Positions 25,787-61,830 of a stretch of 64,000 bases of DNA are shown in pieces. The DNA is from an uncultured Acidimicrobiia bacterium (lineage in GTDB: Bacteria; Actinomycetota; Acidimicrobiia; Spongiisociales; UBA5794): NCBI GenBank assembly GCA_963714375.1, contig CAVQOG010000003.1:297457-361456 (forward strand), in the 5' to 3' direction. The notes below the pieces were generated by a model that was not told the DNA's origin, made no database searches, and was given only the letters and a program-made list of their open reading frames with translations. Both the position numbers and the translations under genes were made by a program. How positions within the stretch are numbered: the stretch's first letter is position 1; each line of letters begins with the position of its first letter.

Positions 25787-26111
25787 GCCGAGCATGCCAC
25801 CAAGGTCGAGCCCGGCCGCAGCTCCACCCATCGACGCTTCGGCATCGGCCTGCATCGCTGCGTAGGCCTGATTGACCGCAGCGACGACCAGATCGCTGAC
25901 CATGTCGGGGTCGTCGGGATCGAGCACCGTCGGGATCGAGATCCACGGAGAGCAGTTCGCCTGTTCCCTTCATGGTCGCCTTGACAACACCGCCACCGAC
26001 GGTGCCTTCATAGGTCTTGGCAGCAAGGGTCTCTTGTGCAGCCACCATCTGGGCCTGCATCTGTTGAGCCTGCTGCATGAGCTGTTGCATATCTTTTGGC
26101 ATTTTGGACAT
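25783..26111 (-). CDS. ybaB: nucleoid-associated protein YbaB/EbfC, frame disrupted by a tandem duplication at 25911-25945
   Basis: N-terminus [22 protein letters not shown]. Native C-terminus [25 protein letters not shown]...GGMLG* is recovered in another frame. The repeat is CGTCGGGATCGAG-cac-CGTCGGGATCGAG-atccac. After it the frame fuses into recR. Confidence 0.6.
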
Positions 26112-43905: not shown

Positions 43906-44930
43906 TGCGCGCGCTCGTGAAGTCCAAACCCGAGCCAGGGATTTGGCTCGAGGACGTCTCCATGCCTGATGTCGGCCCGAACGATGTCCTGATCGCCGTT
44001 CAGAAGACGTCGATCTGTGGAACCGATCTCCACATCGTCGCGTGGGACGAGTGGGCGGCATCAACGATTCCGGTTCCGATGGTTGTGGGGCACGAATACA
44101 TGGGTGTTGTGGCTGGGGTTGGGTCTGAAGTCCAGGGCATCACGGTCGGTCAGCGCGTGTCGGGAGAGGGCCACATCGTGTGTGGACGGTGTCGAAACTG
44201 CCAAGCCGGGAGACGCCACCTCTGCATTCGGACGAAGGGTGTCGGCGTGAACCGGCCGGGAGCCTTCGCCGAATTTGTCGCCATCCCGGGTTCGAACGTT
44301 CAGCCACTCCCCGATGATGTGAGCGACGACATCGGCTGCATTCTCGATCCACTCGGGAACGCGGTTCATACGACACTCAATTACGACCTTGTCGGCGAGG
44401 ATGTGCTGATCACGGGGGCTGGTCCAATCGGCATGATGTCTGTGGCAATCGCCAGGCACGTCGGCGCGAGGAGCATCGTGGTCACCGATGTCAACGAATA
44501 TCGGTTGCGGCTGGCCGAAACACTTGGAGCCGATGTCGAACTCGACCCGACGCAGGGAACACTCAAAGATGTGATGGACAAACTCGGCATGACCGAAGGC
44601 TTCGACGTCGGGCTCGAAATGTCTGGACACCCCGATGCGCTCCACGACATGATCTCGACGATGAGCAATGGGGGCAAGATCGCCCTTCTCGGCATTCCTC
44701 CGAAGCAGGCACCGATCGATTGGAATGACATCGTCTTCAAGGGTCTGACGATGCAAGGTATCTATGGACGCCGGATGTTCGAGACGTGGTACACAATGCT
44801 CGCCATGCTTCAAACGGGTCTCGATGTGTCCCGCGTGATCACGCACCACTTCGATGCTGCGAACTTCGAGGAAGCCTTCGACGTTGTCCGCTCCGGTGAC
44901 TGCGGGAAAGTGGTGTTGGACTGGTCCTGA
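43905..44930 (+). CDS. tdh: L-threonine 3-dehydrogenase
   Basis: Zn-ADH fold (GHEYMGVV, structural-Zn Cys cluster CGRCRNC, GAGPIG). Confidence 0.9.
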
Positions 44931-45231: not shown

Positions 45232-46358
45232 TCAGTTCTCAACGGTGGCTGGGCTACGACCGACGATTCGGGTGTAGTTGGCGGGATCCGTTGCGCCTTC
45301 GGTGACGATGACGAGGGCGATGTCGTCAGGACCGAGATTGAGTTGATCACGGAGGTCTGGGCGACGATCAACCAGACACAGGAGGGTTGCAAGCGACGCC
45401 GCTCCGGTCTCGCCTGCCACGATGCCCTCGGCAGCGAGGAGGCGCATCGCTTCTTCTGCCCACTCATCGTCGAACGCCACAACAGCGTCAAGACCGTCGT
45501 TGAGGACGGGGAATGCGATTGGTGAGGCGGTACCACAGTTGAGTCCAGCCATCATCGTGTCGTGCGTTCCAGGAATCGAGACGACCTCGCCAGACTCGAT
45601 TGCTGCCAGCACACAGGATGCAACGCTCGGCTCTCCACCGATGAACACGGGACGTGGTTCCGCTTCAGCGAACTTCGCGATCATCGCAACAGCGAGCGCA
45701 CCGACGCCCATCGGCGCCGAAACCACCGTGGCCATCGGCAGGCCCATTGCTGCCTCCTGATCCTCGATCTCGAACATCAGCGTCGAGTAGCCGTCAATGA
45801 CCCACTGGGGAACTGTTTCGTAGCCGGGCCATGATGTGTCGGATACCACAAGCGTTCGATCTCCGGCAGCTGCAGCCGCCACCTTCACCGCGTCGTCGTA
45901 GGGTCCGTCCACAACGGTGACTGTGGCCCCTTCGGCGACAATCGCATCGATACGCGCCTGCACCATGTCGATGGGGACCCAGACATGCGCGTCCAACCCA
46001 AGGAGCTGCGCCATACGGGCGACCGCCCGACCGTGGTTCCCGTCCGTCGCCGTTGCGAGGGTCAACGGCAGATGTGGTCGAATCATGGCGGCAAAAGCCT
46101 CAATAGTGTCCCATCCGTCCGAGTCGATACCGGTGCGTCGAATGATCGACCGATACGACGCCCACGACGCGCCGAGCATCTTGAAGGCTGGAAGACCAAG
46201 CCGAATCGACTCGTCCTTCACATAGAGAGCACCGATTCCGAGCCGATCGGCCAACGCTGGAACCACCCGAAGTGGGGTTCGTTCGTACCCGGGAAGCCGT
46301 CGGTGCAGGGTGAGAGGGTCGCGGGTCGACGGCTTGGCTGGTGGGTGTGGGGTGACAT
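45232..46358 (-). CDS. PLP-dependent diaminopropionate ammonia-lyase-like enzyme (YgeX/DpaL family); 5' end unresolved
   Basis: GYERTPL...LYVKDESIRLGLPAFKMLGASWA (PLP-Lys). No in-frame start after the upstream gene stop at 46409. Nearest ATG (46358) is +1 out of frame. Confidence 0.65.
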
Positions 46359-46408
46359 TGTTGAGAAGGACCCTTGGATCCGAAGTTGGTGGGTCCGAAA
46401 CTGGTCGA

Positions 46409-48184
46409 TCAGATATCGGTGGCACGGATCGGCACTCCCTGATCGCCGGTGATGACAGCCGTGAGGGTGGAGATTTCGCTTTCCCAACCCTCTGCTGCGA
46501 TCGGCACGATTCCATCGCCCGTTGCCACCAACCGGAACCCCTGTCCCTCGGCACCGGCAAAACGCACCTCGTCGAGCCACAGCTTCGGCTTGATCTGTGC
46601 GGGGTCACCGTCTTCGGGACAGAACGTCATACAGTTTCCACATTCGTTGCAAAGCTCCGCAAACACGAGGTACTGCCAGCGTCCCCCGATCTCGTCGGCG
46701 AGGTGCTCGGGGCTCGGAAGTTTGACGAAGGCATCGTTCGGACACACGGTCACGCACAGATTGCACGCTACGCAGCCCCACATCTGGAGCTTGTTGTCGA
46801 CCTCGCGAAGCTTCTTGGAGTTCCCCTCCTTGTTGTAGAGCCCGATGTCCTCGGCGACGATCGAGGCGACGTGACTGGCAACCCAGTCGCGATACCCGGC
46901 GGCACGGGCTTCGGTGAGTTTTTCCGTTCTCCAGGTCGCAAGCGAACGGTGACCGGATGCGGCAATGTCGGATGTCAACTGTTTGAGCATCGGTACGAGG
47001 CGTCCGTACCCGCCCGGCTTGAGCAGGTCGGTGCACATCGTTGCTGGGCCGACGCCCATAGCGATCGTGTCCGTCAGATTCTCCTTGCGAACTCCAGCCG
47101 AGAAGCTCACGATCCGTGTGCCGGCTTCCCCCGGAAGATCGAACACACCGGGAAGCGCAGTCACGAGCCTGTCAAGGATCGTCGAAGCGATGACATGGAG
47201 TGGCGGACCGGATAGGTACATCGGATCGTCCGGCATCCACCCCTTCTCGTTCTTGACGACGAGGGTGTTGGAAAGCTTGATCCCGAACTTGCGACCGAGT
47301 GAGTCAGCGTAGGCACCGAGTTCTCCGATAAGACTGAGCGCCCGATCAAATTGGAGATCGGTGTCGAAGGCATCCCTCGTGACGGTCACATCGTTGTACC
47401 CAAGGGTGTCGTGAAGCAGTGACTTGACGTTGTCAAAACCGAGAAGTGTCGGGTTCAGCTTGACGATCACATCGAGCTCGTGCTCATCCATCAGATAGCG
47501 GACGATGGCATCGATCTCGTCTGGAGGACAACCATGGAACGTCGAGAGCGTGAGGGTGTCAGCGATCGTGGTAGGGAAGTCAAGATCCCTGAACTCACCG
47601 AATGGTTCTGGAATTTCGGATCGCAACGCTTCAATCCGTGCGGACGCATCCTTCATCGATTCAATGAAGGATCGCACCTTGTCAGATGAGATCCCTTCGA
47701 GGTCGTATCCGACTGACATGTCGAACACCATCGGTCCCGTGTCCTCGCCGAGATACTCCCGCAACGGTTCCCACCGCTTGAGGATCTCGATGATCATCCA
47801 CGCCTTCACATACTCGTCGATCGTTACGGGTACTGCGAGCTCCTGGCTCCATTCGATGTTGTACCCGATGGTCTCCATGTCGATGCATGGGCGGGCAATG
47901 TCGAGGTCATCCATCACTTGCACGGTCTTGAGTTCGAAGACCCGAGACCCACCGAGCCATGCAAGGACGATGTTCTGGGCCATCTGCGTGTGTGGACCTG
48001 CCGCGGGACCGATCGGTGTGGCAGCAGGGCGACCGAGAAAATCAAAGGACAGGTCGATGTCGGGATCCGGCTTCCAGATGCGGGCCGACATCAGGTCGAA
48101 GATGCGGCCCCGGGTCTCCCACTCGAGCGCGATCCTCCCGAGCAGAGCTCCGAGGGACATGGGGGTGAGTGGTGGCTGGTCCAT
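46409..48184 (-). CDS. DHOD/DPD-like TIM-barrel flavoprotein with C-terminal 2x[4Fe-4S] ferredoxin domain (PreA/YgfK-like)
   Basis: Central dihydroorotate-dehydrogenase-like barrel. C-terminal CVACNLCVTVCP and CNECGNCMTFCP cluster motifs. Confidence 0.65.
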   Translation of the reverse strand: MDQPPLTPMSLGALLGRIALEWETRGRIFDLMSARIWKPDPDIDLSFDFLGRPAATPIGPAAGPHTQMAQNIVLAWLGGSRVFELKTVQVMDDLDIARPCIDMETIGYNIEWSQELAVPVTIDEYVKAWMIIEILKRWEPLREYLGEDTGPMVFDMSVGYDLEGISSDKVRSFIESMKDASARIEALRSEIPEPFGEFRDLDFPTTIADTLTLSTFHGCPPDEIDAIVRYLMDEHELDVIVKLNPTLLGFDNVKSLLHDTLGYNDVTVTRDAFDTDLQFDRALSLIGELGAYADSLGRKFGIKLSNTLVVKNEKGWMPDDPMYLSGPPLHVIASTILDRLVTALPGVFDLPGEAGTRIVSFSAGVRKENLTDTIAMGVGPATMCTDLLKPGGYGRLVPMLKQLTSDIAASGHRSLATWRTEKLTEARAAGYRDWVASHVASIVAEDIGLYNKEGNSKKLREVDNKLQMWGCVACNLCVTVCPNDAFVKLPSPEHLADEIGGRWQYLVFAELCNECGNCMTFCPEDGDPAQIKPKLWLDEVRFAGAEGQGFRLVATGDGIVPIAAEGWESEISTLTAVITGDQGVPIRATDI

Positions 48185-48186
48185 GT

Positions 48187-49203
48187 CTACAGCTTCGCGT
48201 GCAGGCGCCGCGCCTGCTCCGCGGCCTTGGCCCGAATCTCGCGTCCGTCAACTCGGGTGGCGATTCCGTCCCTGAGAACGGTTTCGTCACCGACAACGAT
48301 TTCGAGTGGTCGCACCCCAGGGGTAAACGCCAGATGCCAGGCCTCTGCGGGGTCATAGGACCAGGTAACACGGTCTGATCTCGCCTCGGGGAATAGGTTC
48401 CAGCCGGTCTCGAGCCAACCCCACGCTGTTTCGGGAGTGGCGGTCACGTCCGATTCGCGGTGCTTGAGATATGCGGCACGGAACGACCCGAGCATGTCTC
48501 CCCCGATGCCATCGGTTCCAAGCGCGACCGGGTTTGGGAATCGACTTGGGTTGGCGTAGCCAACCGAGTTGTTCATGTTCGACTCTGCGTTGTGCAGGAT
48601 GGTTCCCGATAGCGGGCGCTCAAGACCGATGGCATGGGCGATCAGCCACGAATCGTCAGCCATATCGGCCAACCTGTCACCCGCACCGGCATCCTCGGGC
48701 CCCTCGTGAACATGAATGTGCACACCGGCATCCACATCGTTGGCGAGTCCGGAGACGGCATCAAGTGTGTCATCCGACAGGGTGAAGCAGGCGTGCGCCC
48801 CGACCCATCCCCTTCCACCCTCGGACAGGAACCTGCGGTTCTCTTCGAGACCACGCTTGGCGCCGTCGGCACCGTTTCGGTCCGTGACCTCGTAGGCACA
48901 TGCGACACGTACACCAACCTCGGCGCAGGCATCTGCAATCACTGAGAGCGACCCCTCGATTGCGTTCGGTGCGGAATGGTGGTCGATGATCGCTGTTGTC
49001 CCACGCTCAAGAGCTTCGAGAGCGCCAAGCATCGCAGACCAGCGGGTCATTTCTTGATCGAGCGCAAGATCGAGCCTCCACCACACCTGTTCGAGGATTT
49101 CAAGGAACGTCGTCGGCGTCTTGGGTGGTGCGGGCATTCCGCGGGCAAGCGCCGAATAGAGATGATGATGGGCGCACACCAAACCCGGTGTCACTGCAGA
49201 CAC
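48187..49203 (-). CDS. amidohydrolase-superfamily protein (SsnA/chlorohydrolase-like)
   Basis: HxH metal motif (VCAHHHL) and later HxH/D ligands. 338 aa. Confidence 0.6.
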   Translation of the reverse strand: MSAVTPGLVCAHHHLYSALARGMPAPPKTPTTFLEILEQVWWRLDLALDQEMTRWSAMLGALEALERGTTAIIDHHSAPNAIEGSLSVIADACAEVGVRVACAYEVTDRNGADGAKRGLEENRRFLSEGGRGWVGAHACFTLSDDTLDAVSGLANDVDAGVHIHVHEGPEDAGAGDRLADMADDSWLIAHAIGLERPLSGTILHNAESNMNNSVGYANPSRFPNPVALGTDGIGGDMLGSFRAAYLKHRESDVTATPETAWGWLETGWNLFPEARSDRVTWSYDPAEAWHLAFTPGVRPLEIVVGDETVLRDGIATRVDGREIRAKAAEQARRLHAKL

Positions 49204-49205
49204 GC

Positions 49206-51779
49206 CTACGCGCCGATCTCAAGCGGCTGGTGAACATCCATTGGAAGTCTGGTTCTCCATTTTCCGTCGACCGCCTTGTACGCGGCTGCAACGGCGCCGG
49301 CTGTGGGGACAAGCCCTATCTCCCCTACACCCTTGATGCCGAACGGTGAACGGGGTTGGGGAACCTCTACAAGGATCACCTCGACATCCGGCATGTCCTT
49401 TGGACGGATGATGTTGAGTTGCCTCAGCGTCGAGAACATCGGCATCCCTTCGTCGTCTGCGGGGAACTCCTCGGAAAGCGCGTATCCGAGTCCCATGTGT
49501 ACAGCTCCTTCCACCTGACCAGCCGCAAGGATCGGATTGATCGCCCTTCCAACGTCGTGTGCGGCGATCACCTTTTCGATCTTTCCCGTATCGGGATCCG
49601 CAATGATGACTTGGCTCGCGTATCCGAATGCCGAGTGGATCGTCGGGTTGTCGAGGCCGTCGTTGATGCTGTTCGTCCAGTCCACGGTGTATGACCCGTG
49701 ATAGTCGACACCCGATTTACAGCCGTCGGCGAGTGCCGCCTTGCAAGCGTCCTCGGTCGAACCGGCCGCCATGAGTGTGCCGCGAGATCCGGTTGTCTGG
49801 CCGGCAGAGAGATCCCGTGTTGTGTCCACGACAACGGTGATCCGATCCGGATCGATTCCGAGTACATCAGCAGCGACCTGGAGAGCCACCGTGTGGACAC
49901 CCTGTCCCATTTCCGTCCATGCGTGCCGGACCTCTACCGTTCCATCCTCCTCGAACCGAACGACACCTTTGGCCACCTCAACGAAACCATTCCCAAGTCC
50001 TGAGTTCTTGATCGCGGCGCCGATGCCAACTGCTTTGCCAGCCTCCACTGCAGCGTCGTAGTGTGGCTTGACGGCATTGAGGCATTCGAGGATCCCGGCT
50101 GCTCCCTCGTCCATGATCTGACCCGGCCCCCACACACTCCCGGGTCTCGCGACATTCATAGCCCTGATCTCCCACGACGAGATGCCGACCTTTTCGGCGA
50201 GCCTGTCGATACAGCCCTCGGTTGCAAATTGCGCCTGATTGGCTCCAAATCCTCGGAACGCACCGCACACAGGATTGTTGGTGCGAACGGCGACAGCTCT
50301 CACATCGACGTTCTCGACGGCGTACGGGCCACATGCGTGGCCAGCCGCACGCTCAAGCACCTTCATCCCTACGGAGGCGTACGGACCCGAATCGCCGATC
50401 ATTCTGGCCTTTACAGCGGTGACTCGGCCGTTCTCATCACATCCCATCCACATCTCGGTACGGATCGGATGACGCTTTGCATGCATCCGGAACGATTCGG
50501 GTCTCGTGAAGGTGCATTTGACCGGTCGACCAAGGAGGTGGGCGGCAAGGGCGGTGTGACCCTGGTTCGACAGATCCTCCTTACCGCCGAATGCTCCTCC
50601 GTTGCTGACAAGCTCAACCGTGACCTTCGATGGATCAAGCCCGAGGATCGAGGCGATCTGATCGCGGTCATCCCACACGCCTTGACCACCTGAGTACACG
50701 TACAAAGATCCATCCTCAGATGGAACCGCAACGGTTGACTCCGGTTCGAGAAAGGCATGCTCGACCCGCTGGGTTTCGAATACCTCATGAACAACATGGG
50801 CAGCCGAAGCAAGGGCCGCTTCAGTGTCGCCACGTGAGTACACGCTCTCGGACAACGTATTTCCCTCGAGTGTCCACACCGCATCCTCATCCGAGGCAAG
50901 AGCAACGTCCGGGTCAGTAAACGGTGTGAGGACGCTGTACTCGATGTCGACAAGATCAGTTGCCGCTCGAGCCGTGAGCATGTCGACGGCCACGACAATC
51001 GCGAGCACGTCGCCTCGATACGACGTCCGCCCTCCTGCGGGAATCATGACGGGCCAGTCCTTGTAGATGATGCCGACCCGCAGTTCTCCTGGGATGTCGT
51101 CGCCGGTGAGCACCGAAACGACACCCGGGTGGGCAAGGGCTCGGGTCGGATCGATCGAGACAACGTCGGCTCGCGCATGATCGGCGAACCTCAGCGCTGC
51201 GTGGAGCATGCCCTCCATCTGGATATCGTCAACGAACCCGCGGTCACCGAGCGAGAGCTCGTTTGCTTCATATTTGACACCGTCGCCGCCGATCTTCCCC
51301 GATCGACCGCGGACAGGGATGGCATCACCTGAAGCAAGCAGCTCAACCGCTTCAACAATCTTCGTGTATCCCGTGCAGCGACAAAGATGGGCACCAAGCC
51401 TTCCCTCAATGGTTGCCCTATCAAGAGCGGTTCCCTTCTGATCGATCAACGCCTTGGTCCGGACGAGAATCCCAGGCGTGCAGAACCCACACTGAAGCGC
51501 ACCGGTGGCGGCGAAGGCGTTTGCATATCGAGCGCGGTCAGCTTCTGTGAAGCCTTCGAGGGTGACGATCGGCTTGTCTGCGACCTTGTCAAGCGACATG
51601 ACGCAACTAGCCATCGCCTTGCCATCGACCAACACGGTGCATGCACCGCATTGTCCAGACGGTGAACATCCGTCCTTGGGCGAGGTGATTCCTAGTCCGT
51701 CGCGGAGGGCGGAAAGGAGATGGGGATGGGCTTCATCTACTTCGCGGATCTCACCGTTTACGTTCAATGAGATGGTCAC
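49206..51779 (-). CDS. xanthine-dehydrogenase-family molybdenum hydroxylase with fused N-terminal [2Fe-2S] domain (XdhD-like)
   Basis: N-terminal CSPSGQCGACTV and CGFCTPG..CRCTGY 2Fe-2S motifs, followed by aldehyde-oxidase/XDH hammerhead and Mo-pterin domains (GGAFGGK, ending GVGE). Confidence 0.85.
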   Translation of the reverse strand: MTISLNVNGEIREVDEAHPHLLSALRDGLGITSPKDGCSPSGQCGACTVLVDGKAMASCVMSLDKVADKPIVTLEGFTEADRARYANAFAATGALQCGFCTPGILVRTKALIDQKGTALDRATIEGRLGAHLCRCTGYTKIVEAVELLASGDAIPVRGRSGKIGGDGVKYEANELSLGDRGFVDDIQMEGMLHAALRFADHARADVVSIDPTRALAHPGVVSVLTGDDIPGELRVGIIYKDWPVMIPAGGRTSYRGDVLAIVVAVDMLTARAATDLVDIEYSVLTPFTDPDVALASDEDAVWTLEGNTLSESVYSRGDTEAALASAAHVVHEVFETQRVEHAFLEPESTVAVPSEDGSLYVYSGGQGVWDDRDQIASILGLDPSKVTVELVSNGGAFGGKEDLSNQGHTALAAHLLGRPVKCTFTRPESFRMHAKRHPIRTEMWMGCDENGRVTAVKARMIGDSGPYASVGMKVLERAAGHACGPYAVENVDVRAVAVRTNNPVCGAFRGFGANQAQFATEGCIDRLAEKVGISSWEIRAMNVARPGSVWGPGQIMDEGAAGILECLNAVKPHYDAAVEAGKAVGIGAAIKNSGLGNGFVEVAKGVVRFEEDGTVEVRHAWTEMGQGVHTVALQVAADVLGIDPDRITVVVDTTRDLSAGQTTGSRGTLMAAGSTEDACKAALADGCKSGVDYHGSYTVDWTNSINDGLDNPTIHSAFGYASQVIIADPDTGKIEKVIAAHDVGRAINPILAAGQVEGAVHMGLGYALSEEFPADDEGMPMFSTLRQLNIIRPKDMPDVEVILVEVPQPRSPFGIKGVGEIGLVPTAGAVAAAYKAVDGKWRTRLPMDVHQPLEIGA

Positions 51780-52771
51780 GCGGTGCCGCCATCGTCGGCG
51801 ATCAGCCGGTAGTGCTGTGGGACCCGATATCGATTGAAGTCGAACACTGTGTTCTTGTAGAAGGAGCCAAAATCAAGGTCGAGGCGGGCAACTGCCACCT
51901 CATCGCCTGTTGTGATGCACCGGGCGACGACCTGGCCGGAAGGGGCATAGATCGCGCTTTGGGCGAGGGAATCCACACCTTCCTCAATCCCGCCCTTTGC
52001 AACACCCACGACATGCGTCCCGTTCTGGTAGGCACCCGAAGCCATGACGAGATCGTTGTGGAATCCGGCAAGGGCATTCTGCTGAGGATCAGGGTCATAG
52101 TGCAGCGGGGTGTTGTATCCGATGAGGATCAGCTCGACACCCTTGATTCCCATGACGCGATACGTCTCTGGCCAGCGTCGATCGTTGCAGATCGCCATGC
52201 CGACCCGCCCGCCAAAGGCGTCCCACACATCGAATCCATCAGGGCCCGATTCAAAGTAGTGACGTTCGGCATGCTGAAACGGACGCCCGGGCTCGTTCTT
52301 CTCGTGGCCGGGAACGTGAACCTTTCGATACTTGCCGACCGTGGTCCCGTCCCTCTCGACGAGGATCTGCGTGTTGTAGCGGTGACGTGTTCCATCGTCA
52401 CCGACAACAAGTTCGGCATATCCGAGTGAAAACCCGACACCAAGTTCCTTGGCTCGGTCGAACAGCGGTTGGGTCGCGGGGTTGGGCATATCGGTTTCGA
52501 ACCAGAACTCGATCTCGTCGATGTCGTCGGTGAACCAGCGCGGGAAGAACGTTGTAAGCGCCAGCTCGGGAAACACAACGAGCTCGCATCCGCGCGCAGC
52601 AGCGTCTTCAAGAAGGGTGATGAGACGTATAACGCATTCAGCCCTCGATTCGTCCCTGCGAATAGGGCCCATCTGAGCCGCACCGACGGTGAGATACCGT
52701 GCCAAAAGTCTCGATCCTGACTGCGTGTTGTGTACCGGCTGATTCTTGTCTACTGCTTTACATTTTGTCAA
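51776..52771 (-). CDS. carbon-nitrogen hydrolase (nitrilase superfamily; N-carbamoyl-amino-acid amidohydrolase-like)
   Basis: Catalytic E-K-C triad context (VVFPELALTTFFPRW, RKVHV, MAICNDRRWPE). True start probably downstream of the TTG at 52771. Confidence 0.8.
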   Translation of the reverse strand: MTKCKAVDKNQPVHNTQSGSRLLARYLTVGAAQMGPIRRDESRAECVIRLITLLEDAAARGCELVVFPELALTTFFPRWFTDDIDEIEFWFETDMPNPATQPLFDRAKELGVGFSLGYAELVVGDDGTRHRYNTQILVERDGTTVGKYRKVHVPGHEKNEPGRPFQHAERHYFESGPDGFDVWDAFGGRVGMAICNDRRWPETYRVMGIKGVELILIGYNTPLHYDPDPQQNALAGFHNDLVMASGAYQNGTHVVGVAKGGIEEGVDSLAQSAIYAPSGQVVARCITTGDEVAVARLDLDFGSFYKNTVFDFNRYRVPQHYRLIADDGGTA

Positions 52772-52795
52772 ATCTGTTTTGACATTTTGTCAAAA
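52761..52795. promoter_or_regulatory. AT-rich operator: direct repeat CATTTTGTCAAA x2 and perfect palindrome TTTTGACA-ttt-TGTCAAAA
   Basis: Only AT-rich island in the locus. Sits in the divergent promoter between the two nitrilase-family genes. Confidence 0.55.
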
Positions 52796-52835
52796 TGAGC
52801 GGTAGTGTCGACGCAGGATCCAGAGGAGGAACGCC

Positions 52836-53678
52836 ATGTCAGACACGCTTCGCGCCGCACTTGTTCAGGCCGCATGGACTGGCGACTACGACTCAATGCT
52901 CGCAACCAATATCGAGTACGCCCATGAGGCGGCAAACGAGGGTGCGAGGGTTGTCTGCTTCCAAGAAATATTCACGGGCCCATACTTCTGCAACGTCCAG
53001 GATCCGCGTTTCTACGACCTCGCTGAGGAGATCCCCCACGGCCCAACCGTGACCGCTATGAAACGGGTTGCGGCCGAGACGGGCATGGTGATGGTGGTTC
53101 CGATCTATGAGAAGGTTGACGAAGGAACGTTCTACAACACCGCAGCTGTGATCGATGCAAACGGAGAAATGCTCGGTATCTATCGCAAGACTCACATTCC
53201 CCAGGTCGAGGGTTTCTGGGAGAAGTTCTACTTCCGACCCGGAAACCTTGGCTATCCCGTGTTCGATACAGCAGTGGGTCGGATCGGCGTTTACATCTGT
53301 TACGACCGTCACTTCCCGGAGGGCTGGCGGGAACTTGGGCTCAAGGGCGCAAAACTTGTCTTCAATCCAAGCGCCACGACGCGAGGGCACTCCAAGTACC
53401 TGTGGGAGCTGGAACAGCCTGCGGCCGCTGTTGCAAACCAGTACTTCGTTGGGGCGATCAATCGGGTTGGGGCAGAGGACCTTGAGGACACGGACTACTA
53501 CGGGTCATCATATTTCGTTGACCCGCGGGGAAAGATTGTTGGTGGTACAGCATCGGACACATCGGACGAGGTTGTCGTCCGTGATCTCGACATGGCTGAG
53601 ATCGAGGCCGCCCGGCGCCATTGGGCGTTCTACCGCGACCGACGACCAGAGGTCTACGAGGGAATCGCAAAGTCGTGA
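52836..53678 (+). CDS. carbon-nitrogen hydrolase (nitrilase superfamily; beta-ureidopropionase/N-carbamoylputrescine amidase-like)
   Basis: E-K-C triad motifs (VVCFQEIF, YRKTHIP, VYICYDRHFPE). GGAGG box before the ATG. Confidence 0.85.
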   Translation: MSDTLRAALVQAAWTGDYDSMLATNIEYAHEAANEGARVVCFQEIFTGPYFCNVQDPRFYDLAEEIPHGPTVTAMKRVAAETGMVMVVPIYEKVDEGTFYNTAAVIDANGEMLGIYRKTHIPQVEGFWEKFYFRPGNLGYPVFDTAVGRIGVYICYDRHFPEGWRELGLKGAKLVFNPSATTRGHSKYLWELEQPAAAVANQYFVGAINRVGAEDLEDTDYYGSSYFVDPRGKIVGGTASDTSDEVVVRDLDMAEIEAARRHWAFYRDRRPEVYEGIAKS

Positions 53679-53914
53679 CCACTTGCCGCGTCGAGTTCGT
53701 TATCGAACCGTTTGCAGACGGCGAGCCAGGCTCTCACGTGCGTGCGGGAATCACGGCAATGGAGTCACAGGGACTCACCGTGATCATGGGGCCATTCGGG
53801 TCTTTGGTCGAAGGATCGACCGAAGACGTTTCGGGCGCCATCTCCTCGATGGTGCAGGCCGCCATCGCCGACGGTGCAAACCGAGTCCTTGTCGAGGTGA
53901 CCGCTCAGCCATGA
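53676..53914 (+). CDS. YkoF/MTH1187 (DUF77) family small protein
   Basis: GTG start overlapping the upstream stop (GTGA). About 80-aa ACT-like fold pattern VEFVIEP...GPFGSLVEGSTEDV. Confidence 0.5.
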
Positions 53915-54276
53915 CTTCCAGCGAACGGAATCTCGCCAAAGCCATCGAACCTCTCATCAATGCCATTGGAGCCGCCGTGTTGTCAACGGACGAGATCAAG
54001 AAGGGTGATATCACGCTTGAGTGGAATGGGAAGCCAGCGATTGGGGTGCGACTCGATGAGATCGTTTCGCTCGACAGACTGATTGCCACCGTTGAGCAGC
54101 AGCTCGGGTCACCGCTGAAGGATCTCGATCGGGCGGACAAGCAACGTGCAGTTCGCATACTGGACGAGCGAGGCGCTTTTCAACTCCGGCGATCGATCGA
54201 AGACGTCGGTGAAGCGATGGGTGTCAGTCGAATCACGATCTACAACTACCTGAGCGCCATCAAGGACGGTGCATGA
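53911..54276 (+). CDS. small HTH transcriptional regulator
   Basis: C-terminal helix-turn-helix IEDVGEAMGVSRITIYNYLSAI. ATGA overlap with DUF77. Confidence 0.5.
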   Translation: MTSSERNLAKAIEPLINAIGAAVLSTDEIKKGDITLEWNGKPAIGVRLDEIVSLDRLIATVEQQLGSPLKDLDRADKQRAVRILDERGAFQLRRSIEDVGEAMGVSRITIYNYLSAIKDGA

Positions 54277-54866
54277 TGGCTGGCCTGTCGTTCACCATGA
54301 CGCTTCCTGACTGGGTCCGGTCGGTGATCGACTTCGATCAGATCTACGAGACGGACGCTGACAAGATGGATCTCGCCAACGCACTCGCAATGGGCAATGT
54401 CGCTCATCAAACCGGTGGACCCTTTGGAGCAGCCATCTTCGAGGAGTCCACACATCGGCTGATCGCCCCCGGTGTCAACCTGGTCGTGCCACAGGCGAAC
54501 CCGACAGCCCATGCCGAGATCGTCGCGATGGGTCTCGCTGGATCGCTTCTCGGTCGATACGACTTGGGAGACGACGGTGCACGACCAGCGGTGCTTGCGT
54601 CAAGCGTCGAACCATGCGCGATGTGTTTGGGCGCTGTTCCGTGGAGTGGCGTGTCGAGATTGATCATCGGGGCAAGGGACGCAGATGCGCGCAATGTCGG
54701 ATTTGACGAAGGTGACAAACCGGCCGATTGGATTGCCTCGCTTGAAGCCCGGGGGATCACAGTCATACAGGATGTCCAGCGCCAACACTCAGTGCTGGTT
54801 CTGAACTCATATCTCAGCTCGGGTGGCGAGATCTACAACACGGACGGAGGGCCAAACGATGCATGA
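54273..54866 (+). CDS. CDA-fold nucleoside/nucleobase deaminase (CMP/dCMP-deaminase zinc-binding family; guanine-deaminase-like)
   Basis: HAE and PCAMC zinc-ligand motifs (TAHAEIVA...EPCAMCLGA). Confidence 0.75.
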   Translation: MMAGLSFTMTLPDWVRSVIDFDQIYETDADKMDLANALAMGNVAHQTGGPFGAAIFEESTHRLIAPGVNLVVPQANPTAHAEIVAMGLAGSLLGRYDLGDDGARPAVLASSVEPCAMCLGAVPWSGVSRLIIGARDADARNVGFDEGDKPADWIASLEARGITVIQDVQRQHSVLVLNSYLSSGGEIYNTDGGPNDA

Positions 54867-56301
54867 GGTGCAGGACAGGTCGTGGAGTGTCGAACGATAC
54901 GAGCGCCCCGCAACCCTCGATGCCGCACTCGACCTGGTGAATACGCACCGGTCAGACGCCCGAATCCTCGCAGGGGGCACGGATCTTCTCCTCGAGATGC
55001 AGCGAAAGGTTCGCTCCGTGGATGTCCTTGTCGATCTTTCGGCCATTGACGGGCTTGGGGACATCATTCTCGACTCCGGCACGGTGTCTCTTGGGCCACT
55101 CGTGACCCACAAGAATGTTGTTGCGTCCGATCTGATCCGCTCGGTCGGCCTCCCGCTTGCCCAAGCATCCCATGAGGTCGGTTCGGCACAGCTTCGGAAC
55201 CGGGCAACGGTTGTTGGGAACATCGTCACCGCTTCACCCGCGAACGACACCATTTCAGCGCTGCTTGCGCTGGACGCCTCCCTCACCCTCGCTTCCGTCG
55301 ACGGTCAGCGCACCGTTGCACTCTCGGACTTCTACGAGGGGGTTCGCAGGACGGCGATGACGGACAACGAGATCGTGACAGGCATTTCATTTCCTGCGAT
55401 GACTGCAGCAGAAGCCGGAATTTTCGCAAAGGTTGGCCTCCGCTCCGCGCAAGCGATCTCCGTCGTCCACGGATCCATTCTCTTGTCACGAGACAATGGC
55501 GTCGTAACTTCGGCTCGAATTTCACTGGGAAGCGTCGCACCAGTGGTCGTACTAGCCGAAGCCGCTGAAATGCTCGTCGGAAACAACCTGTCGGACGAGA
55601 TGATCACTCAATGCGCTTTGGCGTGTGCAGCCGAAGTCAGACCGATCTCGGACGGAAGGGCAACCGCCGAATACCGCACTGCAATGGTTGAAGTCGCAGT
55701 TGCACGCATGCTTCGGTCACTGAAGGACGGGACCGAGGCGACCGAGTGGCCAGCGCGGGTCACGACACTCGACAACAGCAGCGTCAAACACCAATACGAC
55801 CCTGTCTCCGTCGGATCCGCAGATGGCGTGACCATGGTGATCAACGGCGTCATCACCACGGGCCCCGGGCGGTGCAACACCACGCTCCTCGATTGGATCA
55901 GAGAGAATGCCACCGACGCGGACGGTTTGGGGCTAACCGGAACGAAGGAGGGATGCGCCGAGGGCGAGTGTGGCGCATGCACCGTCCACATGGATGGAAG
56001 AGCAGTGCTCGCCTGCCTCGTCGCCGCACCGGCAGCTCATGGAAGTGATGTCACCACCATCGAAGGTCTCACATCTGCACCGGACCGAACCATGCAGGAG
56101 GCACTCGTCGACTTCGGAGCAGTCCAGTGCGGGTATTGCACACCAGGGTTCGTCATGTGCGCCTCATCGTTGTTGAGTGAGCATGAGGACCTCTCGACAC
56201 ACGAGATTCGTGACGGTCTCAGCGGCAACATCTGTCGCTGCACCGGGTACGACTCAATCGTCGCAGCGGTCCAGATTTCGGACGTGGAGCGGCGCCGATG
56301 A
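54859..56301 (+). CDS. molybdenum-hydroxylase FAD-binding subunit fused C-terminally to [2Fe-2S] subunit (CoxM-CoxS order)
   Basis: N-terminal FAD-binding PCMH domain (ILAGGTDLL), CO-dehydrogenase flavoprotein C-terminal domain, then CAEGECGACTV...CGYCTPGF...CRCTGY. Confidence 0.85.
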   Translation: MHEVQDRSWSVERYERPATLDAALDLVNTHRSDARILAGGTDLLLEMQRKVRSVDVLVDLSAIDGLGDIILDSGTVSLGPLVTHKNVVASDLIRSVGLPLAQASHEVGSAQLRNRATVVGNIVTASPANDTISALLALDASLTLASVDGQRTVALSDFYEGVRRTAMTDNEIVTGISFPAMTAAEAGIFAKVGLRSAQAISVVHGSILLSRDNGVVTSARISLGSVAPVVVLAEAAEMLVGNNLSDEMITQCALACAAEVRPISDGRATAEYRTAMVEVAVARMLRSLKDGTEATEWPARVTTLDNSSVKHQYDPVSVGSADGVTMVINGVITTGPGRCNTTLLDWIRENATDADGLGLTGTKEGCAEGECGACTVHMDGRAVLACLVAAPAAHGSDVTTIEGLTSAPDRTMQEALVDFGAVQCGYCTPGFVMCASSLLSEHEDLSTHEIRDGLSGNICRCTGYDSIVAAVQISDVERRR

Positions 56302-56310
56302 GATTTCGAA

Positions 56311-56395
56311 ACACACACGTCGGAGTCTCGAGCCCGCAAGCCCCGTCCTCCAGTAGGGACGGGCGAGCAGAGCGGGCCAGGGGGGCACACTCGAT
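56311..56395. repeat. family-B GC-rich repeat
   Basis: ACGTCGGAGTCTCGAGCCCGCAAGCCCCGTCCTCCAGTAGGGACGGG...GGGGGG. Intergenic between the two XDH subunit genes. Confidence 0.5.
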
Positions 56396-58634
56396 ATGAC
56401 GATTGGGACCAATGCTCGAAGGATCGACTCGTACGACAAGGTCACGGGGGCTGCGCTCTATCCGGGAGACCTACCGGCCGAAAACGCGCTCTCTGCGAAA
56501 GTTGTCTTCTCGAATCGACCGCACGCCAGAATGATCTCGATGGACACGGCTCCGGCCCTCGCGGTTGATGGCGTCGTCGAGGTTGTTACTGCCGCTGACA
56601 TTCCACTCAACGAATACGGCCTAACCATGCCCGATCAGCCGGTCCTCATCGGTGTAGATGGAACGGGAACATCCCATGTCCCATCCAACATTTCAAGATG
56701 GGAAGCCGATCAGGTCGCCATTGTCATCGCGGAGACCGGGCATGCGGCGCTCGCCGGGGCGAAGGCCCTCGCAATCGAGTGGGAGGACCTTCCACTCGTA
56801 CCAGATCTAACAGCTGCGCGGACCGATGAGATCCTCGTCCACCCAGAAAACCCTGGCAAAACGAACGCTTACTACACGCTGAGGATCCGGAAGGGCGACA
56901 TGAAATCCGGCTGGGACGCAGCCGACATCGTGGTCGAGGGCACCTATCACCTCCCCCATCAGGAGCACGCTTATCTCCAACCTGAGGCGGGCCTGGCGTA
57001 CGTCGAAGACGACGGAGTCGTCACCGTCCAGATCGCGGGTCAATGGACCCATGAGGACCGCGAACAGATCGCACATGCCCTTGAGCTGCCCGAGCAGATG
57101 GTCCGCGTTGTCTACCCGGCAATCGGTGGAGCGTTTGGCGGTCGAGAGGACATGAGCCTCCAAATTGTGTTGGCCGCTGCGGCCCTCAAGCTTCACAGAA
57201 GAGGCATCAATCGTCCCGTGCGTACCGTGTGGAACCGTGAAGAGAGCATCGTCGGGCACCACAAGCGGCATCGCGCTCGAGATCACGACGCGGTGGGGGG
57301 CCAGGAGCGACGGACGCATTGTGGCGGTAGAGGCCGAGGCTTTTCTCGATGCCGGTGCCTACAACTACACGTCGAACAAGGTACTTGCCAACCTCCACCT
57401 CACGTTGACGGGCCCCTACAAGATCGACAACGCTCACATCGACTCCAGCGCCGTTTACACACATTCGGTTCCCGGCGGAGCATTCCGCGGCTTCGGCGGT
57501 CCTCAGGGCTCGTTCGTATCCGAGGGGCAGATGAACAAGGTGGCAGACGCATTGGGTATGGATCCAATCGAGATCCGAAGAGTCAACCTGCTCCACGACG
57601 GGGATGATTTCATCACACAGAGGCCGATGCCCGAAGGGGTGAGCATTGAGACTGTCATCGACGAACTCTCCGAGGCATCTGAGTGGAATCAACAACACCC
57701 GATCGATGTAGCCGTGGCGGCGATAAAGACGCTTGGTTCCAATCATTCGGCGATCAGAACCGGTAGAGGGATGGCGTGTGCACTCAAGAATGTCGGGTTT
57801 TCAATGGGCTTTCCCGAACGATGCGAGGCGACAGTCACCCTATATGGAGATGACAAGGTCGAATCTGCCCACCTCTCTCACGCTGGAGCCGATGTCGGTC
57901 AGGGCGCACACACTGCGTTTCTCCAGATGACAGCAGAGGCGGTTGATCTTCCCTTCGAGAAGGTGACGGGATCGTTCTCCGATACCGCAACAAGCGGGGA
58001 CTCCGGTTCGGCGTCGGCGTCGCGGCTTACGTTCATGGCCGGGAACTCCATCCAAGGCGCGACCGAAGAGGCCATCAAGGCGTGGATCGACGGGGACCGA
58101 CCAGCGCTCGGCCATTTCCGCTATGTCCCGCCACCGACCGATGCCATCGACCCAGAAACTGGCGAGGGAAATCCCAACGTCACCCTCGGGTATGTGGCTG
58201 AAATCGTCGAGGTCGCGGTCGACATCGAGACGGGCCACGTGCGCGTCGGGACGGTCTACTGCGCGGTCGACGTCGGAAAGGCCATCAACCCAACACTCAT
58301 TCGCGGACAGGTTGAAGGAGCCATCGTCCAGGCCCACGGCTACGCGCTTTCAGAACACCTGCGTGTCAGCAACGGGCGGACCGAGAACCCAACCTTCTCC
58401 GGATATCTGGTGCCCGGCAGCATGGATACGCCGGATCGCATTGAGACGGTCATCGTCGAGGTTGCCGATCCAGCCGGGCCATGGGGGGCGCGCGGCATGG
58501 CGGAAATGCCATTCATCCCGTATGCACCGGCTGTCGTTGCAGCACTTCACGACGCAACCGGTGTGTGGTTCGACGAGATTCCACTGACGCCTGACCGTGT
58601 CCTCGCAAAACTCAGAGCAGCCGGCGGAGCATAA
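56396..58634 (+). CDS. molybdenum-hydroxylase large (Mo-pterin) subunit; frame disrupted near 57270-57295
   Basis: ORF 56396..57607 is homologous up to ESIVGHHKRH. The -1 frame ORF 57165..58634 is homologous from ALEITTRWGARSDG onward. Together about 745 aa. Confidence 0.75.
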
Positions 58635-58703
58635 CCGGCAATGCCGACGACGGCCGATGTAGCGGAACTCGCCGGACCCCTCGCAGGTCGATAGGGTTGG
58701 GGC

Positions 58704-59375
58704 ATGGAAACGGTCACGAATGGCGTCTATCTGATCTCAAGGGGATCAAACGCGTACATCGTTGATGGGGACGACGGCGTTGTGCTTGTCGACACGGGAA
58801 TGCCAAAGCGCCACGGCGCGATTGTCGAGGGCCTGTCCGACATCGGCCGGTCAGCAAAGGACGTACGCGCCATCCTTCTCACGCACGCCCACTTTGACCA
58901 TTTTGGTGGCGCTGCGGCTCTCAGATCAGCTTCTGACGCTGGCGTGTACGCATCCCACATCGACGCGATGGTCATCAGGGGGGACAAGCCAACCGAGCCC
59001 CCACCGGTATTGGAGAGGCTTCCGTTCATCAGGTCGGTGATGAAGATCATGCCCCAACCGACATCACTCCCGGTGGATCACATCGTTGCTGAGGGATTCG
59101 ATCAGGGCCTGCCCGAAGACTTCACGGCCATCGACACACCGGGCCACACTGAAGGACATCTGTCGTACCTGCTGAACCGTCGCGGTGGTGTCCTCTTTGT
59201 CGGTGATGCCGCGAACAACGCCAAGGGATCGATCAAACGGGGCTGGTTCAACCGATCGACCGACACGATCGACGGAAGCATCCACCATCTCGGCTCGTTC
59301 GACTTCGAGATGGCGGTCTTCGGCCACAGCGGTCCAATCACCTCGAATGCCTCAGCCGCCTTCTCCAGCTACTAG
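58704..59375 (+). CDS. MBL-fold metallo-hydrolase
   Basis: THAHFDHFGG metal-binding motif and later DTPGHTEGH. Confidence 0.8.
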   Translation: METVTNGVYLISRGSNAYIVDGDDGVVLVDTGMPKRHGAIVEGLSDIGRSAKDVRAILLTHAHFDHFGGAAALRSASDAGVYASHIDAMVIRGDKPTEPPPVLERLPFIRSVMKIMPQPTSLPVDHIVAEGFDQGLPEDFTAIDTPGHTEGHLSYLLNRRGGVLFVGDAANNAKGSIKRGWFNRSTDTIDGSIHHLGSFDFEMAVFGHSGPITSNASAAFSSY

Positions 59376-59700: not shown

Positions 59701-60471
59701 ATGCCGTCACATGAGAACCGTCGTGCGCTGATCACCGGCGCTGGCTCGGGCATCGGCCGAGGTGTCGCCCGCCGGCTGGCAAATGAGGGGGCGGCCGTCG
59801 CCTTGCTTGACGTCAACCAGGAGACCGCGTTCGCCGTCGCCAACGAGATCACCTCAGACGGCGGCACAGCCGTGGCCGTGGCCGCTGACGTACGGGACCG
59901 CAGCGCGGTGCGTGATGCGATTGCGGCCGCTGCTGCTGCGTTGAGCGGCATCGACTATCTGGTCAACAACGCTGGCTTGATCACCATGAGCGCCTTCGAA
60001 GAGACGACGGATGAGGAGTGGGATCTCGTGATGGACGTCAACTGCAAGGGGATGTTCATCGTCACCCAGGAGGCGCTTCCGTACCTGCGTGATGGAGCTG
60101 AGGGTGCGGCAGTGGTGAATCTGTCCACCGTCGAGGCTGAGGTCGTGGTGTCGTCCCAGGGATCATGCCAGGTTCACTACAACGCGTCGAAGGGCGGCGT
60201 AAGGATGTTGACCAAGGCAATGGCGGCGGAATTGTCCCAGTACGGTATCCGGGTAAACGCGGTCGCGCCCGGTCCTGTGGCCACCGGCTTCGTTCCCGGT
60301 CTGAGCCACGACGATGTGGATGTGCGTTCGTTCATGGACGCACGATTGCTGATCAAGCGGTCTGCTACACCAGAGGACATCGCGGCGGCGATCTCCTTCC
60401 TGCTCTCCTCGGACGCATCGTTCATCACCGGTGTCCAGCTTCCCGTCGACGGCGGATGGCTGGTTCGATGA
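59701..60471 (+). CDS. SDR-family oxidoreductase
   Basis: TGAGSGIGRG cofactor motif, NNAG, catalytic YxxxK (YNASK). Confidence 0.9.
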   Translation: MPSHENRRALITGAGSGIGRGVARRLANEGAAVALLDVNQETAFAVANEITSDGGTAVAVAADVRDRSAVRDAIAAAAAALSGIDYLVNNAGLITMSAFEETTDEEWDLVMDVNCKGMFIVTQEALPYLRDGAEGAAVVNLSTVEAEVVVSSQGSCQVHYNASKGGVRMLTKAMAAELSQYGIRVNAVAPGPVATGFVPGLSHDDVDVRSFMDARLLIKRSATPEDIAAAISFLLSSDASFITGVQLPVDGGWLVR

Positions 60472-61817: not shown

Positions 61818-61830
61818 TGTACACGCTTGA

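Follow-up and report, generated by a model that had tools for sequence, protein, structure and literature searches.

A divergent gene cluster of an uncultured Acidimicrobiia bacterium as a candidate variant of the reductive uric acid (2,8-dioxopurine) pathway

Which compound is broken down by a group of genes that combines two molybdenum (Mo) hydroxylases with an amidohydrolase, a truncated flavin/iron-sulfur reductase, a deaminase and two CN-hydrolases? The question is raised by a 64,000-nucleotide stretch of contig CAVQOG010000003.1 from an uncultured Acidimicrobiia bacterium (the window, in what follows), where a list of open reading frames (ORFs) together with Pfam and NCBIfam scans places twelve genes at 45232-59375, in two divergent, tightly packed groups covering ~14 kb (Table 1). 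The original prediction for this DNA had put all twelve genes in their right places and had held that their substrate could not be named. This latter view has been superseded by two studies from 2025, in which such an enzyme set was shown to degrade uric acid, 2,8-dioxopurine being formed on the way to 2,3-diaminopropionate and pyruvate (Li et al. 2025, 10.1101/2025.05.19.654654; Liu et al. 2025, 10.1101/2025.04.24.650524). The genes make up a genuine, coherent and conserved cluster, whose substrate class is most likely purines, degraded via urate and 2,8-dioxopurine. Based on homology, domain content, synteny and operator conservation, it is probable that the cluster forms a complete, co-regulated purine catabolic unit, i.e. 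a variant of the reductive uric acid pathway. From these observations we infer what each enzyme catalyses, that the minus-strand Mo enzyme works reductively, what donates the electrons in both reductive steps and which enzyme opens the hydantoin.

In the published route, XdhD-YgfM reduces uric acid to 2,8-dioxopurine, YgfK and SsnA reduce and open the pyrimidine ring to give ureidomethylhydantoin, HyuA opens the hydantoin, the 2-ureido group is removed by YgeW or UacY and the 3-ureido group by YgeY, and YgeX turns 2,3-diaminopropionate into pyruvate and ammonia (Li et al. 2025). D-stereochemistry was inferred for UacY and HyuA, with DpaL reportedly being active on both isomers, and the known variants use UacX for YgfK, UacY for YgeW/YqeA or, in Chloroflexota, a putative F420-dependent reductase; SsnA was also noted in Actinomycetota (Li et al. 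2025). Clostridium sporogenes follows the same route with an FeS-Mo protein, XdhAC, which was named DOPDH, depends on SelD and makes no use of NAD(P)H, while its YgfK was named DOPOR (Liu et al. 2025). In the literature searched, no paper was found that links Acidimicrobiia or a CN-hydrolase carbamoylase to this pathway. The pathway as such is therefore known, and what is new is a variant with two CN-hydrolase carbamoylases, a truncated YgfK, a predicted guanine deaminase of the CDA type and a DUF77/HTH_22 regulator. It is further set apart by the missing hydantoinase, by selenium accessory genes that are unlinked or absent and by how widely it occurs in environmental Acidimicrobiia.

Four marker enzymes of the pathway are encoded next to each other in the minus-strand operon, with the YgfK, SsnA and YgeX homologues being 37%, 32% and 34% identical to the respective E. 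coli proteins. NCBIfam and tblastn searches bear out the earlier claim that this half of the cluster is homologous to the ygeX-ygfK-ssnA-xdhD neighbourhood of E. coli. The full E. coli cluster (xdhD-ygfM/ygfK/ssnA/hyuA/ygeW/yqeA/ygeY/ygeX) likewise unites a Mo hydroxylase, a YgfK-type FMN/Fe-S domain, SsnA and a diaminopropionate ammonia-lyase, and it shares the logic of taking urate via 2,3-diaminopropionate to pyruvate. It also has a guanine deaminase (guaD) and a xanthine dehydrogenase (XDH) close by, so that the deaminase set is not, as had been thought, foreign to the E. coli locus. Nor is the gene content a one-off, since neighbourhood comparison found the gene order conserved in relatives. 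For this comparison, 80 loci were retrieved from a scan that took one genome per species, and the query and E. coli proteins were overlaid onto them by tblastn; the counts given below are over 82 non-redundant loci, numbered L001 onwards where a single locus has to be named.

Enzymes of the two operons

The Mo hydroxylase of the minus-strand operon scores 833 bits against TIGR03311 (cutoff 830.45) and has FeS and Mo domains but no FAD domain. Against TIGR03313 it reaches 198 bits (cutoff 1102), and its identity to E. coli XdhD is 24%. Judged by sequence, it belongs to the TIGR03311 FeS-Mo type and not to the E. coli XdhD type; of the earlier label of an XdhD-like enzyme, the [2Fe-2S]-Mo make-up has thus stood and the XdhD type has not. 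Clostridial XdhAC/DOPDH fits the TIGR03311 type by its published domain make-up and size, a comparison made by description only. The active-site motifs GGAFGGKE, AFRGFG and GVGE, the Glu/Arg/Glu set of purine hydroxylases, are all present, and we take them to be the positions of Glu802, Arg880 and Glu1261 of bovine xanthine oxidoreductase.

The truncated YgfK homologue (YgfK-N) matches positions 5-395 of the 1012 positions of TIGR03315 (427 bits, cutoff 835). It aligns with residues 5-405 (37% identity) and 898-976 of E. coli YgfK, the residues in between (~406-897, the FAD/NAD(P)H module) being absent, and has two CxxCxxCxxxC [4Fe-4S] motifs starting at residues 471 and 512. Sequence searches against the PDB returned ferredoxin-domain matches only, and the top structural matches of an AlphaFold2 model (mean pLDDT 76) were pig dihydropyrimidine dehydrogenase (DPD) and class-2 DHODH (E ~1e-7). 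As predicted from sequence and model, YgfK-N is a DHOD/DPD-like FMN barrel with two [4Fe-4S] clusters that lacks the GltD-like FAD/NAD(P)H module.

For the SsnA homologue, NF005540 (252 bits, cutoff 444) and TIGR03314 (233 bits, cutoff 455) are the best models, with both scores staying below the cutoff. The protein starts at the HxH metal motif without the first ~53 residues and is 32% identical to residues 54-440 of E. coli SsnA. Because the alignment to E. coli SsnA begins around residue 50-59 in nearly all of the 63 related loci with a match, the truncation is a subfamily trait and no defect; the short form is also found in two loci with otherwise canonical gene sets. By sequence comparison, this SsnA is placed in the deaminase-like TRZ/ATZ branch and not among the dihydropyrimidinases/hydantoinases.

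At the two ends of the same operon lie the genes for DpaL and for the first of the CN-hydrolases. DpaL scores 327 bits against NF006058 (cutoff 276) and is 34% identical to E. coli YgeX over residues 15-389. Its GTG start overlaps the YgfK-N stop codon by 17 nt, and its N-terminus (46374-46425) carries a short proline-rich insertion with an internal repeat (ISDRPVSDPPTSDP, in place of ISDP in L001). The CN-hydrolase matches the solved N-carbamoyl-D-amino-acid hydrolases (DCases) 8i99, 6lcg, 1fo6 and 1erz over its full length with E-values of 5e-111 to 2e-100 (8i99: 4.6e-111 over 296 residues). The active-site stretch CNDRRW, comprising the catalytic Cys and the carboxylate-binding Asn/Arg/Arg, is intact at residues 168-173. 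The protein can be classed as a DCase homologue, D-specific by family.

Its counterpart on the plus strand is closest to N-carbamoylputrescine amidase (PDB 5h8i, E 3e-53) and beta-ureidopropionase (2vhh, 1e-48) and scores 254 bits against TIGR03381, below the cutoff of 410; by these matches it is assigned to the family that acts on beta/omega-ureido groups. A nitrilase function was rejected for both CN-hydrolases as the PDB matches are carbamoylases. Of the earlier annotation, which had listed a nitrilase/carbamoylase and a second nitrilase, the carbamoylase part remains.

Further along the plus-strand operon, the CDA-fold deaminase matches PDB 2g84/4lc5 (E 8e-39; 2g84 8.4e-39 over residues 31-193) and guanine deaminase of B. 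subtilis (1wkq, 2e-17). We take 2g84 (NE0047) to be a guanine deaminase. In other loci, an amidohydrolase-type GuaD-like gene adjoins the XDH genes just as the CDA-fold gene does in the window, which supports a role of the latter as guanine deaminase. The adjoining XDH-type enzyme consists of a fused FAD/FeS subunit and a Mo subunit. For the former, the top NCBIfam models are those of the XdhA small subunit and XdhB, all below cutoff (xanthine_xdhA: 296 bits, cutoff 467). The best family of the Mo subunit is PucD (484 bits, cutoff 784), as scored on the intact L001 orthologue (the window gene is frameshifted, see below). With the XDH domain set and the Glu/Arg/Glu motifs present and the equivalog cutoffs not reached, the enzyme is assigned to the XDH family, and a specificity for xanthine and hypoxanthine may be inferred. 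The 94-nt gap between the two subunit genes (56302-56395) holds a GC-rich hairpin, CCCGTCC...GGACGGG, without an Rfam match.

The last gene encodes an MBL-fold hydrolase whose PDB matches are distant and B3-lactamase-like only, with no close characterised relative. It is kept in L001 and L002 (65% identity) and is absent beside the cluster in L003 and L057. Whether it belongs to the pathway is uncertain, and since it lacks a close characterised relative and is not conserved past the nearest relatives, it is a weak candidate for the missing hydantoinase.

Table 1. Features of the cluster, in window coordinates.
Feature	Position	Strand	Basis
DpaL/YgeX homologue (putative 2,3-diaminopropionate ammonia-lyase), last gene of the minus operon	45232..46425	-	NF006058
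YgfK-N, truncated YgfK (DOPOR-like), 591 aa	46409..48184	-	Partial match to TIGR03315, alignment with E. coli YgfK
Short SsnA-like amidohydrolase, 338 aa	48187..49203	-	NF005540/TIGR03314 as top models
[2Fe-2S]x2 + molybdopterin hydroxylase without FAD domain, 857 aa; putative DOPDH, XdhAC type	49206..51779	-	TIGR03311
DCase homologue (CN-hydrolase), first gene of the minus operon	51776..52705	-	PDB DCase matches
Predicted divergent promoter/operator spacer	52706..52835	.	Sequence, match counts, GC content
Beta-ureidopropionase/N-carbamoylputrescine-amidase-like CN-hydrolase	52836..53678	+	PDB 5h8i, 2vhh
DUF77/Thiamine_BP protein, 79 aa	53675..53914	+	PF01910
HTH_22 protein, 121 aa	53911..54276	+	PF13309
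Predicted guanine deaminase, CDA fold	54273..54866	+	PDB 2g84/4lc5, 1wkq
FAD + CO_deh_flav_C + [2Fe-2S] fused subunit of the XDH-type enzyme	54859..56301	+	PF00941, PF03450, PF01799
Molybdopterin (Mo) subunit of the XDH-type enzyme, frameshifted	56396..58634	+	tblastn, PucD as best family
MBL-fold hydrolase, 223 aa	58704..59375	+	PF00753 (103 bits)

Proposed route and its relation to known pathways

The proposed route starts in the plus-strand operon, where guanine deaminase would convert guanine to xanthine and the XDH-type enzyme would turn xanthine, and probably hypoxanthine as well, into urate. The FeS-Mo hydroxylase of the minus-strand operon would then reductively strip the 6-oxo group of urate to give 2,8-dioxopurine, whose ring would be reduced by YgfK-N with its FMN and two [4Fe-4S] clusters. 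The short SsnA would hydrolyse the resulting cyclic amidine at C4, and a second ring opening would yield 2,3-diureidopropionate. This intermediate would lose its 2-ureido group through the DCase homologue and its 3-ureido group through the beta-ureidopropionase-like enzyme, by which albizziin would become 2,3-diaminopropionate, leaving DpaL to form pyruvate and 2 NH3. In sum, guanine would give up each of its five nitrogens as ammonia; no O2 would be needed, and no ATP would be recovered from carbamoyl phosphate.

The assignment of the two carbamoylases is suggested by the intermediate itself: 2,3-diureidopropionate has an alpha-N-carbamoyl as well as a beta-ureido group, meaning that two such enzymes fit two decarbamoylation steps. 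The D-specificity of the DCase family also agrees with the D-stereochemistry inferred for HyuA and UacY. We therefore propose that the two CN-hydrolases, as suggested by their families, are functional replacements at the YgeW/UacY and YgeY steps and not an unrelated add-on. For the second ring opening, an unlinked hydantoinase may be responsible, or SsnA may act twice on one carbon; the latter is chemically conceivable given that both hydrolyses occur at the same carbon (purine C4), with the former being equally possible. It can further be speculated that the two reductive enzymes, both of which lack an NAD(P)H module, receive their electrons from ferredoxin or from the neighbouring XDH.

The cluster departs from the E. 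coli system at several points. Besides the different type of its Mo enzyme, the window has no YgfM FAD subunit, its YgfK and SsnA are shortened as described above and its guanine deaminase has the CDA fold, not the amidohydrolase fold. HyuA, YgeW, YqeA, YgeY, YqeB and YqeC are missing; for YgeW, YqeA and YgeY, as for XdhC, tblastn and Pfam searches of the other ORFs returned no homologue in the window. With decarbamoylation taken over by the two CN-hydrolases, there would be no ATP recovery via carbamate kinase.

The clostridial systems of C. sporogenes and C. difficile are nearer in some respects. They share the fused FeS-Mo DOPDH of ~850 aa without a FAD subunit, for which the clostridial reductant is not NAD(P)H, and the C. 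difficile variant also has a ring reductase without a FAD domain and cleaves the 2-ureido group hydrolytically instead of phosphorolytically. Yet, the corresponding reductase in the window is a truncated YgfK and not the PF01180 protein UacX, and the candidate 2-ureido hydrolase is a CN-hydrolase DCase and not the PF07969 D-aminoacylase-like UacY. The 3-ureido step would likewise fall to a beta-ureidopropionase-like enzyme, not the M20 protein YgeY, HyuA is absent, and the host is an environmental actinobacterium, not a gut anaerobe, with selenium accessory genes that are unlinked to the cluster.

A last point of comparison is provided by the D-hydantoinase/D-carbamoylase systems of Agrobacterium and Nitratireductor (1fo6, 1erz, 8i99), to which the window DCase is matched over its full length with CNDRRW kept. 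In contrast to these systems, it has no hydantoinase partner and adjoins the Mo hydroxylase and SsnA instead, which suggests 2,3-diureidopropionate as a natural substrate of the DCase family. To our knowledge, the natural role of D-carbamoylases has so far been unclear.

Operator and conservation in relatives

The close packing of the genes, which overlap by 4, 8 or 17 nt or are spaced by 2 nt, points to an operon organisation; the exceptions are the gap before the Mo subunit gene and one of 69 nt before the MBL gene (94 nt in the former case). Between the two operons, the 130-bp spacer has a GC content of 0.46, falling to 0.31 in its core, compared to 0.60 for the window, which stays at ~60% along its whole 64 kb. 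It contains two near-perfect palindromes in tandem, TTTACATTTTGTCAA at 52757-52771 and TTGACATTTTGTCAA at 52779-52793, 22 bp apart from start to start. When all 64 kb were scanned for the palindrome TTGACAnnnTGTCAA, this pair was the sole match at 0 or 1 mismatch. Gene packing, spacer composition and palindromes together confirm the two divergent operons and the shared AT-rich operator that had been predicted.

Relatives have this palindrome as well: in L001, L002, L003, L005, L007, L010 and L057 it immediately precedes the DCase gene, and in L008 the Mo hydroxylase gene. In most of the loci bearing it, the operator site accounts for every match at up to 2 mismatches. In L003, an AbiEi_4-like gene (8090-8956) separates the operons and each of them keeps one copy of the palindrome; the copy of the plus-type operon lies ~54 bp upstream of it, that of the DCase operon ~70 bp upstream. 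Two operator sites are also present in L057 (7905 and 8999), with the same spacing as in L003. An operator that is kept upstream of both separated operons constitutes comparative evidence that both answer to it.

The likely reader of this site is encoded in the plus-strand operon, where the DUF77 protein (PF01910, 31 bits, cutoff 24.9; no match in the PDB) is followed by an HTH_22 protein (PF13309, 69 bits). The two are separate, overlapping genes in the window but fused into a single 160-aa protein in L003, suggesting that they act jointly, one as the sensor half and the other as the DNA-binding half of a single regulator. In the proposed mechanism, the DUF77 sensor and the HTH_22 DNA-binding protein would bind the TTGACAnnnTGTCAA palindromes and control both operons; that it is the HTH_22 protein that binds, as repressor or activator, is our proposal. 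Scans for promoter and terminator consensus sequences gave counts no higher than chance, and Rfam revealed no riboswitch, either in the whole window at gathering thresholds or in the cluster at E-values up to 1.

The closest protein matches all stem from metagenome bins of uncultured Actinomycetota/Acidimicrobiia. One database protein is 100% identical to YgfK-N. The whole twelve-gene arrangement recurs on two contigs with a Mo hydroxylase 90% identical to that of the window, where a PfkB-family kinase gene is inserted before the MBL gene; in L001/L002, this gene lies at 2279-3220 between the Mo subunit and MBL genes, and it is not present in the window. The arrangement is found again at 72% identity on a 2.38-Mb contig, without DpaL and MBL at that site. 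The full supercluster is limited to the closest clade (L001, L002, L003, L005 and L057). L005 (CAXMSN010000025.1), which carries the same supercluster with an 84% identical Mo hydroxylase, is labelled 'uncultured Kiloniellales' and probably represents mis-binned actinobacterial DNA.

Beyond this clade, a smaller core is widespread. The short SsnA accompanies the Mo hydroxylase in 61/82 loci and a DCase-type CN-hydrolase lies directly upstream of it in 44/82, with the DCase-Mo hydroxylase-SsnA trio being present in most of the ~60 Acidimicrobiia loci. Among its carriers are complete Acidimicrobiales chromosomes (e.g. OZ246894.1, OZ220497.1, OY970375.1 and OZ244864.1) and strains of Ilumatobacter or Iamia. 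YgfK or YgfK-N (18/82), DpaL (12/82) and the second CN-hydrolase (4/82) are less frequent, and a full-length YgfK occurs in a few loci (L006-L008). According to a census of neighbours, the commoner Acidimicrobiia layout is M20 peptidase - DCase - Mo hydroxylase - SsnA - luciferase-like oxidoreductase (PF00296), sometimes joined by DpaL or a PnrA-type ABC transporter. The M20 peptidase gene directly precedes the DCase gene in 21 loci, while the window has the beta-ureidopropionase-like enzyme. The PF00296 gene, whose product is possibly F420-dependent, directly follows SsnA in 23 loci (e.g. L037, 13648-14667, and L065, 7722-8996) and hence occupies the position of YgfK-N. These loci resemble the F420-type variant of Chloroflexota in this respect but differ from it by the DCase gene just upstream of the Mo hydroxylase, often with the M20 peptidase upstream of it, whereas the window itself has a YgfK-N reductase. 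Further afield, Mo hydroxylases of ~50% identity in Caldimonas and Rubrivivax bins adjoin the urate transporter UacT, YgeW, YgeY, YqeA, SsnA and a full-length YgfK.

Several features outside the cluster may be recorded here. One flank (42715-44930) holds kbl-tdh (threonine to glycine), and the other (59701-63315) an SDR, a glutamine-synthetase-like (gamma-glutamylputrescine-synthetase-like) gene and an aldehyde dehydrogenase; together these could make up an amine-utilisation set. At 37388-38515 lies a gene for a baeRF-family (bacterial archaeo-eukaryotic release-factor-like) protein (PF18855/PF18851). A single ORF at 14551-15813 joins His_biosynth (HisA-like), PRA-CH and PRA-PH (HisI/HisE) and is either an unusual fusion or a sequence artefact.

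Alternative readings, selenium and ecological range

A number of observations weigh against the 2,8-dioxopurine route. HyuA was not found in the window (tblastn, E<1e-3) and a HyuA-like gene is present in only 3/82 related loci, so that, with HyuA absent from the window and 79/82 loci, the opening of the hydantoin (or dihydrouracil) ring has no assigned enzyme. SsnA and YgfK-N stay below their equivalog cutoffs, and YgfK-N lacks the NAD(P)H/FAD module without a partner reductase being encoded in the cluster. The Mo hydroxylase passes TIGR03311 by just 3 bits, and this model is named for 'selenium-dependent xanthine dehydrogenase', not for DOPDH. Glu606 is said to distinguish XdhD from XdhA (Li et al. 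2025), and the window enzyme has a Glu at this position, which falls in a variable, poorly alignable loop where the alignment is unreliable. In addition, YqeB and YqeC were found neither in the window nor, at >=50% coverage, within 10 kb in the 82 loci, and the Mo gene of the XDH-type enzyme is frameshifted as sequenced.

Some of these points could also be explained if the minus-strand Mo enzyme were an ordinary, possibly selenium-dependent, xanthine or purine hydroxylase working in the oxidative direction, with the downstream enzymes acting on a reduced N-heterocycle of another kind, e.g. a different oxopurine isomer or a compound resembling a pterin or a hydantoin. The name of the narrowly passed TIGR03311 model would suit such an enzyme, as would the low identity to E. 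coli XdhD, the urate reductase characterised by Li et al. (2025), and the subthreshold scores of SsnA and YgfK-N. We nevertheless regard this as improbable: a second, complete XDH-type enzyme with a guanine deaminase next door would make two xanthine oxidisers redundant, the FeS-Mo architecture of ~850 aa without FAD matches clostridial XdhAC/DOPDH, orthologues co-localise with UacT and the canonical downstream genes, and the operon-terminal DpaL fits a C3-diamine product. Even less credence can be given to a pathway of reductive pyrimidine or D-hydantoin utilisation, in which YgfK-N would play the part of PydA, SsnA that of a dihydropyrimidinase and the CN-hydrolases those of PydC and D-carbamoylase, an unrelated hydroxylation being left to the Mo enzymes. 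The YgfK-N fold does match dihydropyrimidine dehydrogenase, and the CN-hydrolases do resemble beta-ureidopropionase and industrial D-carbamoylases. Against this very improbable reading stand the placement of SsnA in the TRZ/ATZ branch with no HyuA/DHPase homologue present, DpaL and guanine deaminase, which have no role in pyrimidine breakdown, and the fixed association of the trio with the Mo hydroxylase across 44 loci.

A different kind of alternative concerns the plus-strand half, which may be decaying in this organism, so that the XDH-type enzyme is lost and only the half downstream of urate still works. The Mo gene is split by a 1-nt insertion at ~57276-57278 (GCTCGAG, compared to GCCGAG in L001) that is seen in the DNA alignment with L001 and L003 and as a frame switch in tblastn. 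It breaks the frame inside MoCoBD_1, between model positions 138 and 142, and lies outside any homopolymer run, which speaks for a genuine lesion. Yet, the highly conserved ybaB gene (minus strand, upstream of recR) carries a comparable +1 frameshift at 25922-25943, with its N-terminal half continuing in the recR frame and its C-terminal half lying in another, pointing to indel errors in the assembly consensus. Moreover, the Mo gene has no other lesions, and each of its two halves shares 73% identity with the orthologue that is intact in L001. The frameshift may thus be an assembly error, and decay, while possible, is on the whole unlikely. Programmed frameshifting was rejected on account of the intact Mo subunits of the relatives (743-745 aa), none of which is frameshifted, and of the second +1 frameshift in ybaB.

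The 2,8-dioxopurine route itself also raises the matter of selenium. The selA (partial, cut by the window edge) and selB genes lie adjacent at 3-2817, as had been noted, and indicate that selenocysteine is used by this organism, which implies a SelD elsewhere in its genome. In line with the earlier reading, tblastn and Pfam searches of the other ORFs found no YqeB, YqeC or SelD, the accessory genes of the selenium-dependent molybdenum hydroxylase trait (Haft & Self), in the 64-kb window. Nor was YqeB or YqeC found at >=50% coverage within +/-10 kb of the 82 related loci, where L075 (Rhodospirillales) gave a partial YqeB-like match. ARAGORN and Rfam detected no tRNA-Sec in the 64 kb, the only tRNA being tRNA-Pro(CGG) at 6341-6417. 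We know of no sequence signature for the labile Se ligand on Mo. In the gut, YqeB and YqeC occur in all strains having the pathway (Liu et al. 2025).

A more far-reaching hypothesis, which we put forward tentatively and regard as unlikely, is that free-living Acidimicrobiia use an O2-independent, hydantoinase-free and non-ATP-conserving form of the 2,8-dioxopurine pathway as their main means of stripping all nitrogen from purines. Here, both ring openings at C4 would be the work of the short SsnA or of some hydrolase not yet recognised, e.g. the MBL protein, 2,3-diureidopropionate would be the natural substrate of D-carbamoylases, and electrons from XDH would flow to the FAD-less DOPDH and YgfK-N, rendering hypoxanthine breakdown redox-neutral. 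The Mo centre may then be sulfurated, not selenated.

Cultured Acidimicrobiia, e.g. Ilumatobacter and Iamia, are aerobes, which accords poorly with the published portrayal of the pathway as an anaerobic gut signature. It has been described as anaerobic, selenium-dependent and enriched in animal guts/host-associated microbiomes and Bacillota (Liu et al. 2025). The cluster and the ~60 related loci indicate that the core of the pathway is widespread in Acidimicrobiia, for which the titles of metagenome-assembled genomes and the names of isolates point to marine, lake, soil, bog and sponge habitats. As three or four steps would be carried out by non-homologous enzymes, a BLAST survey with the clostridial gene set would probably miss this cluster. 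If the assignment is true, it would extend the ecological range of the pathway to the scavenging of purine nitrogen in open environments and provide D-carbamoylases with a candidate physiological substrate. It would also expose a ring-opening step without an assigned enzyme and make it a fair question whether the Mo enzyme needs selenium outside gut anaerobes.

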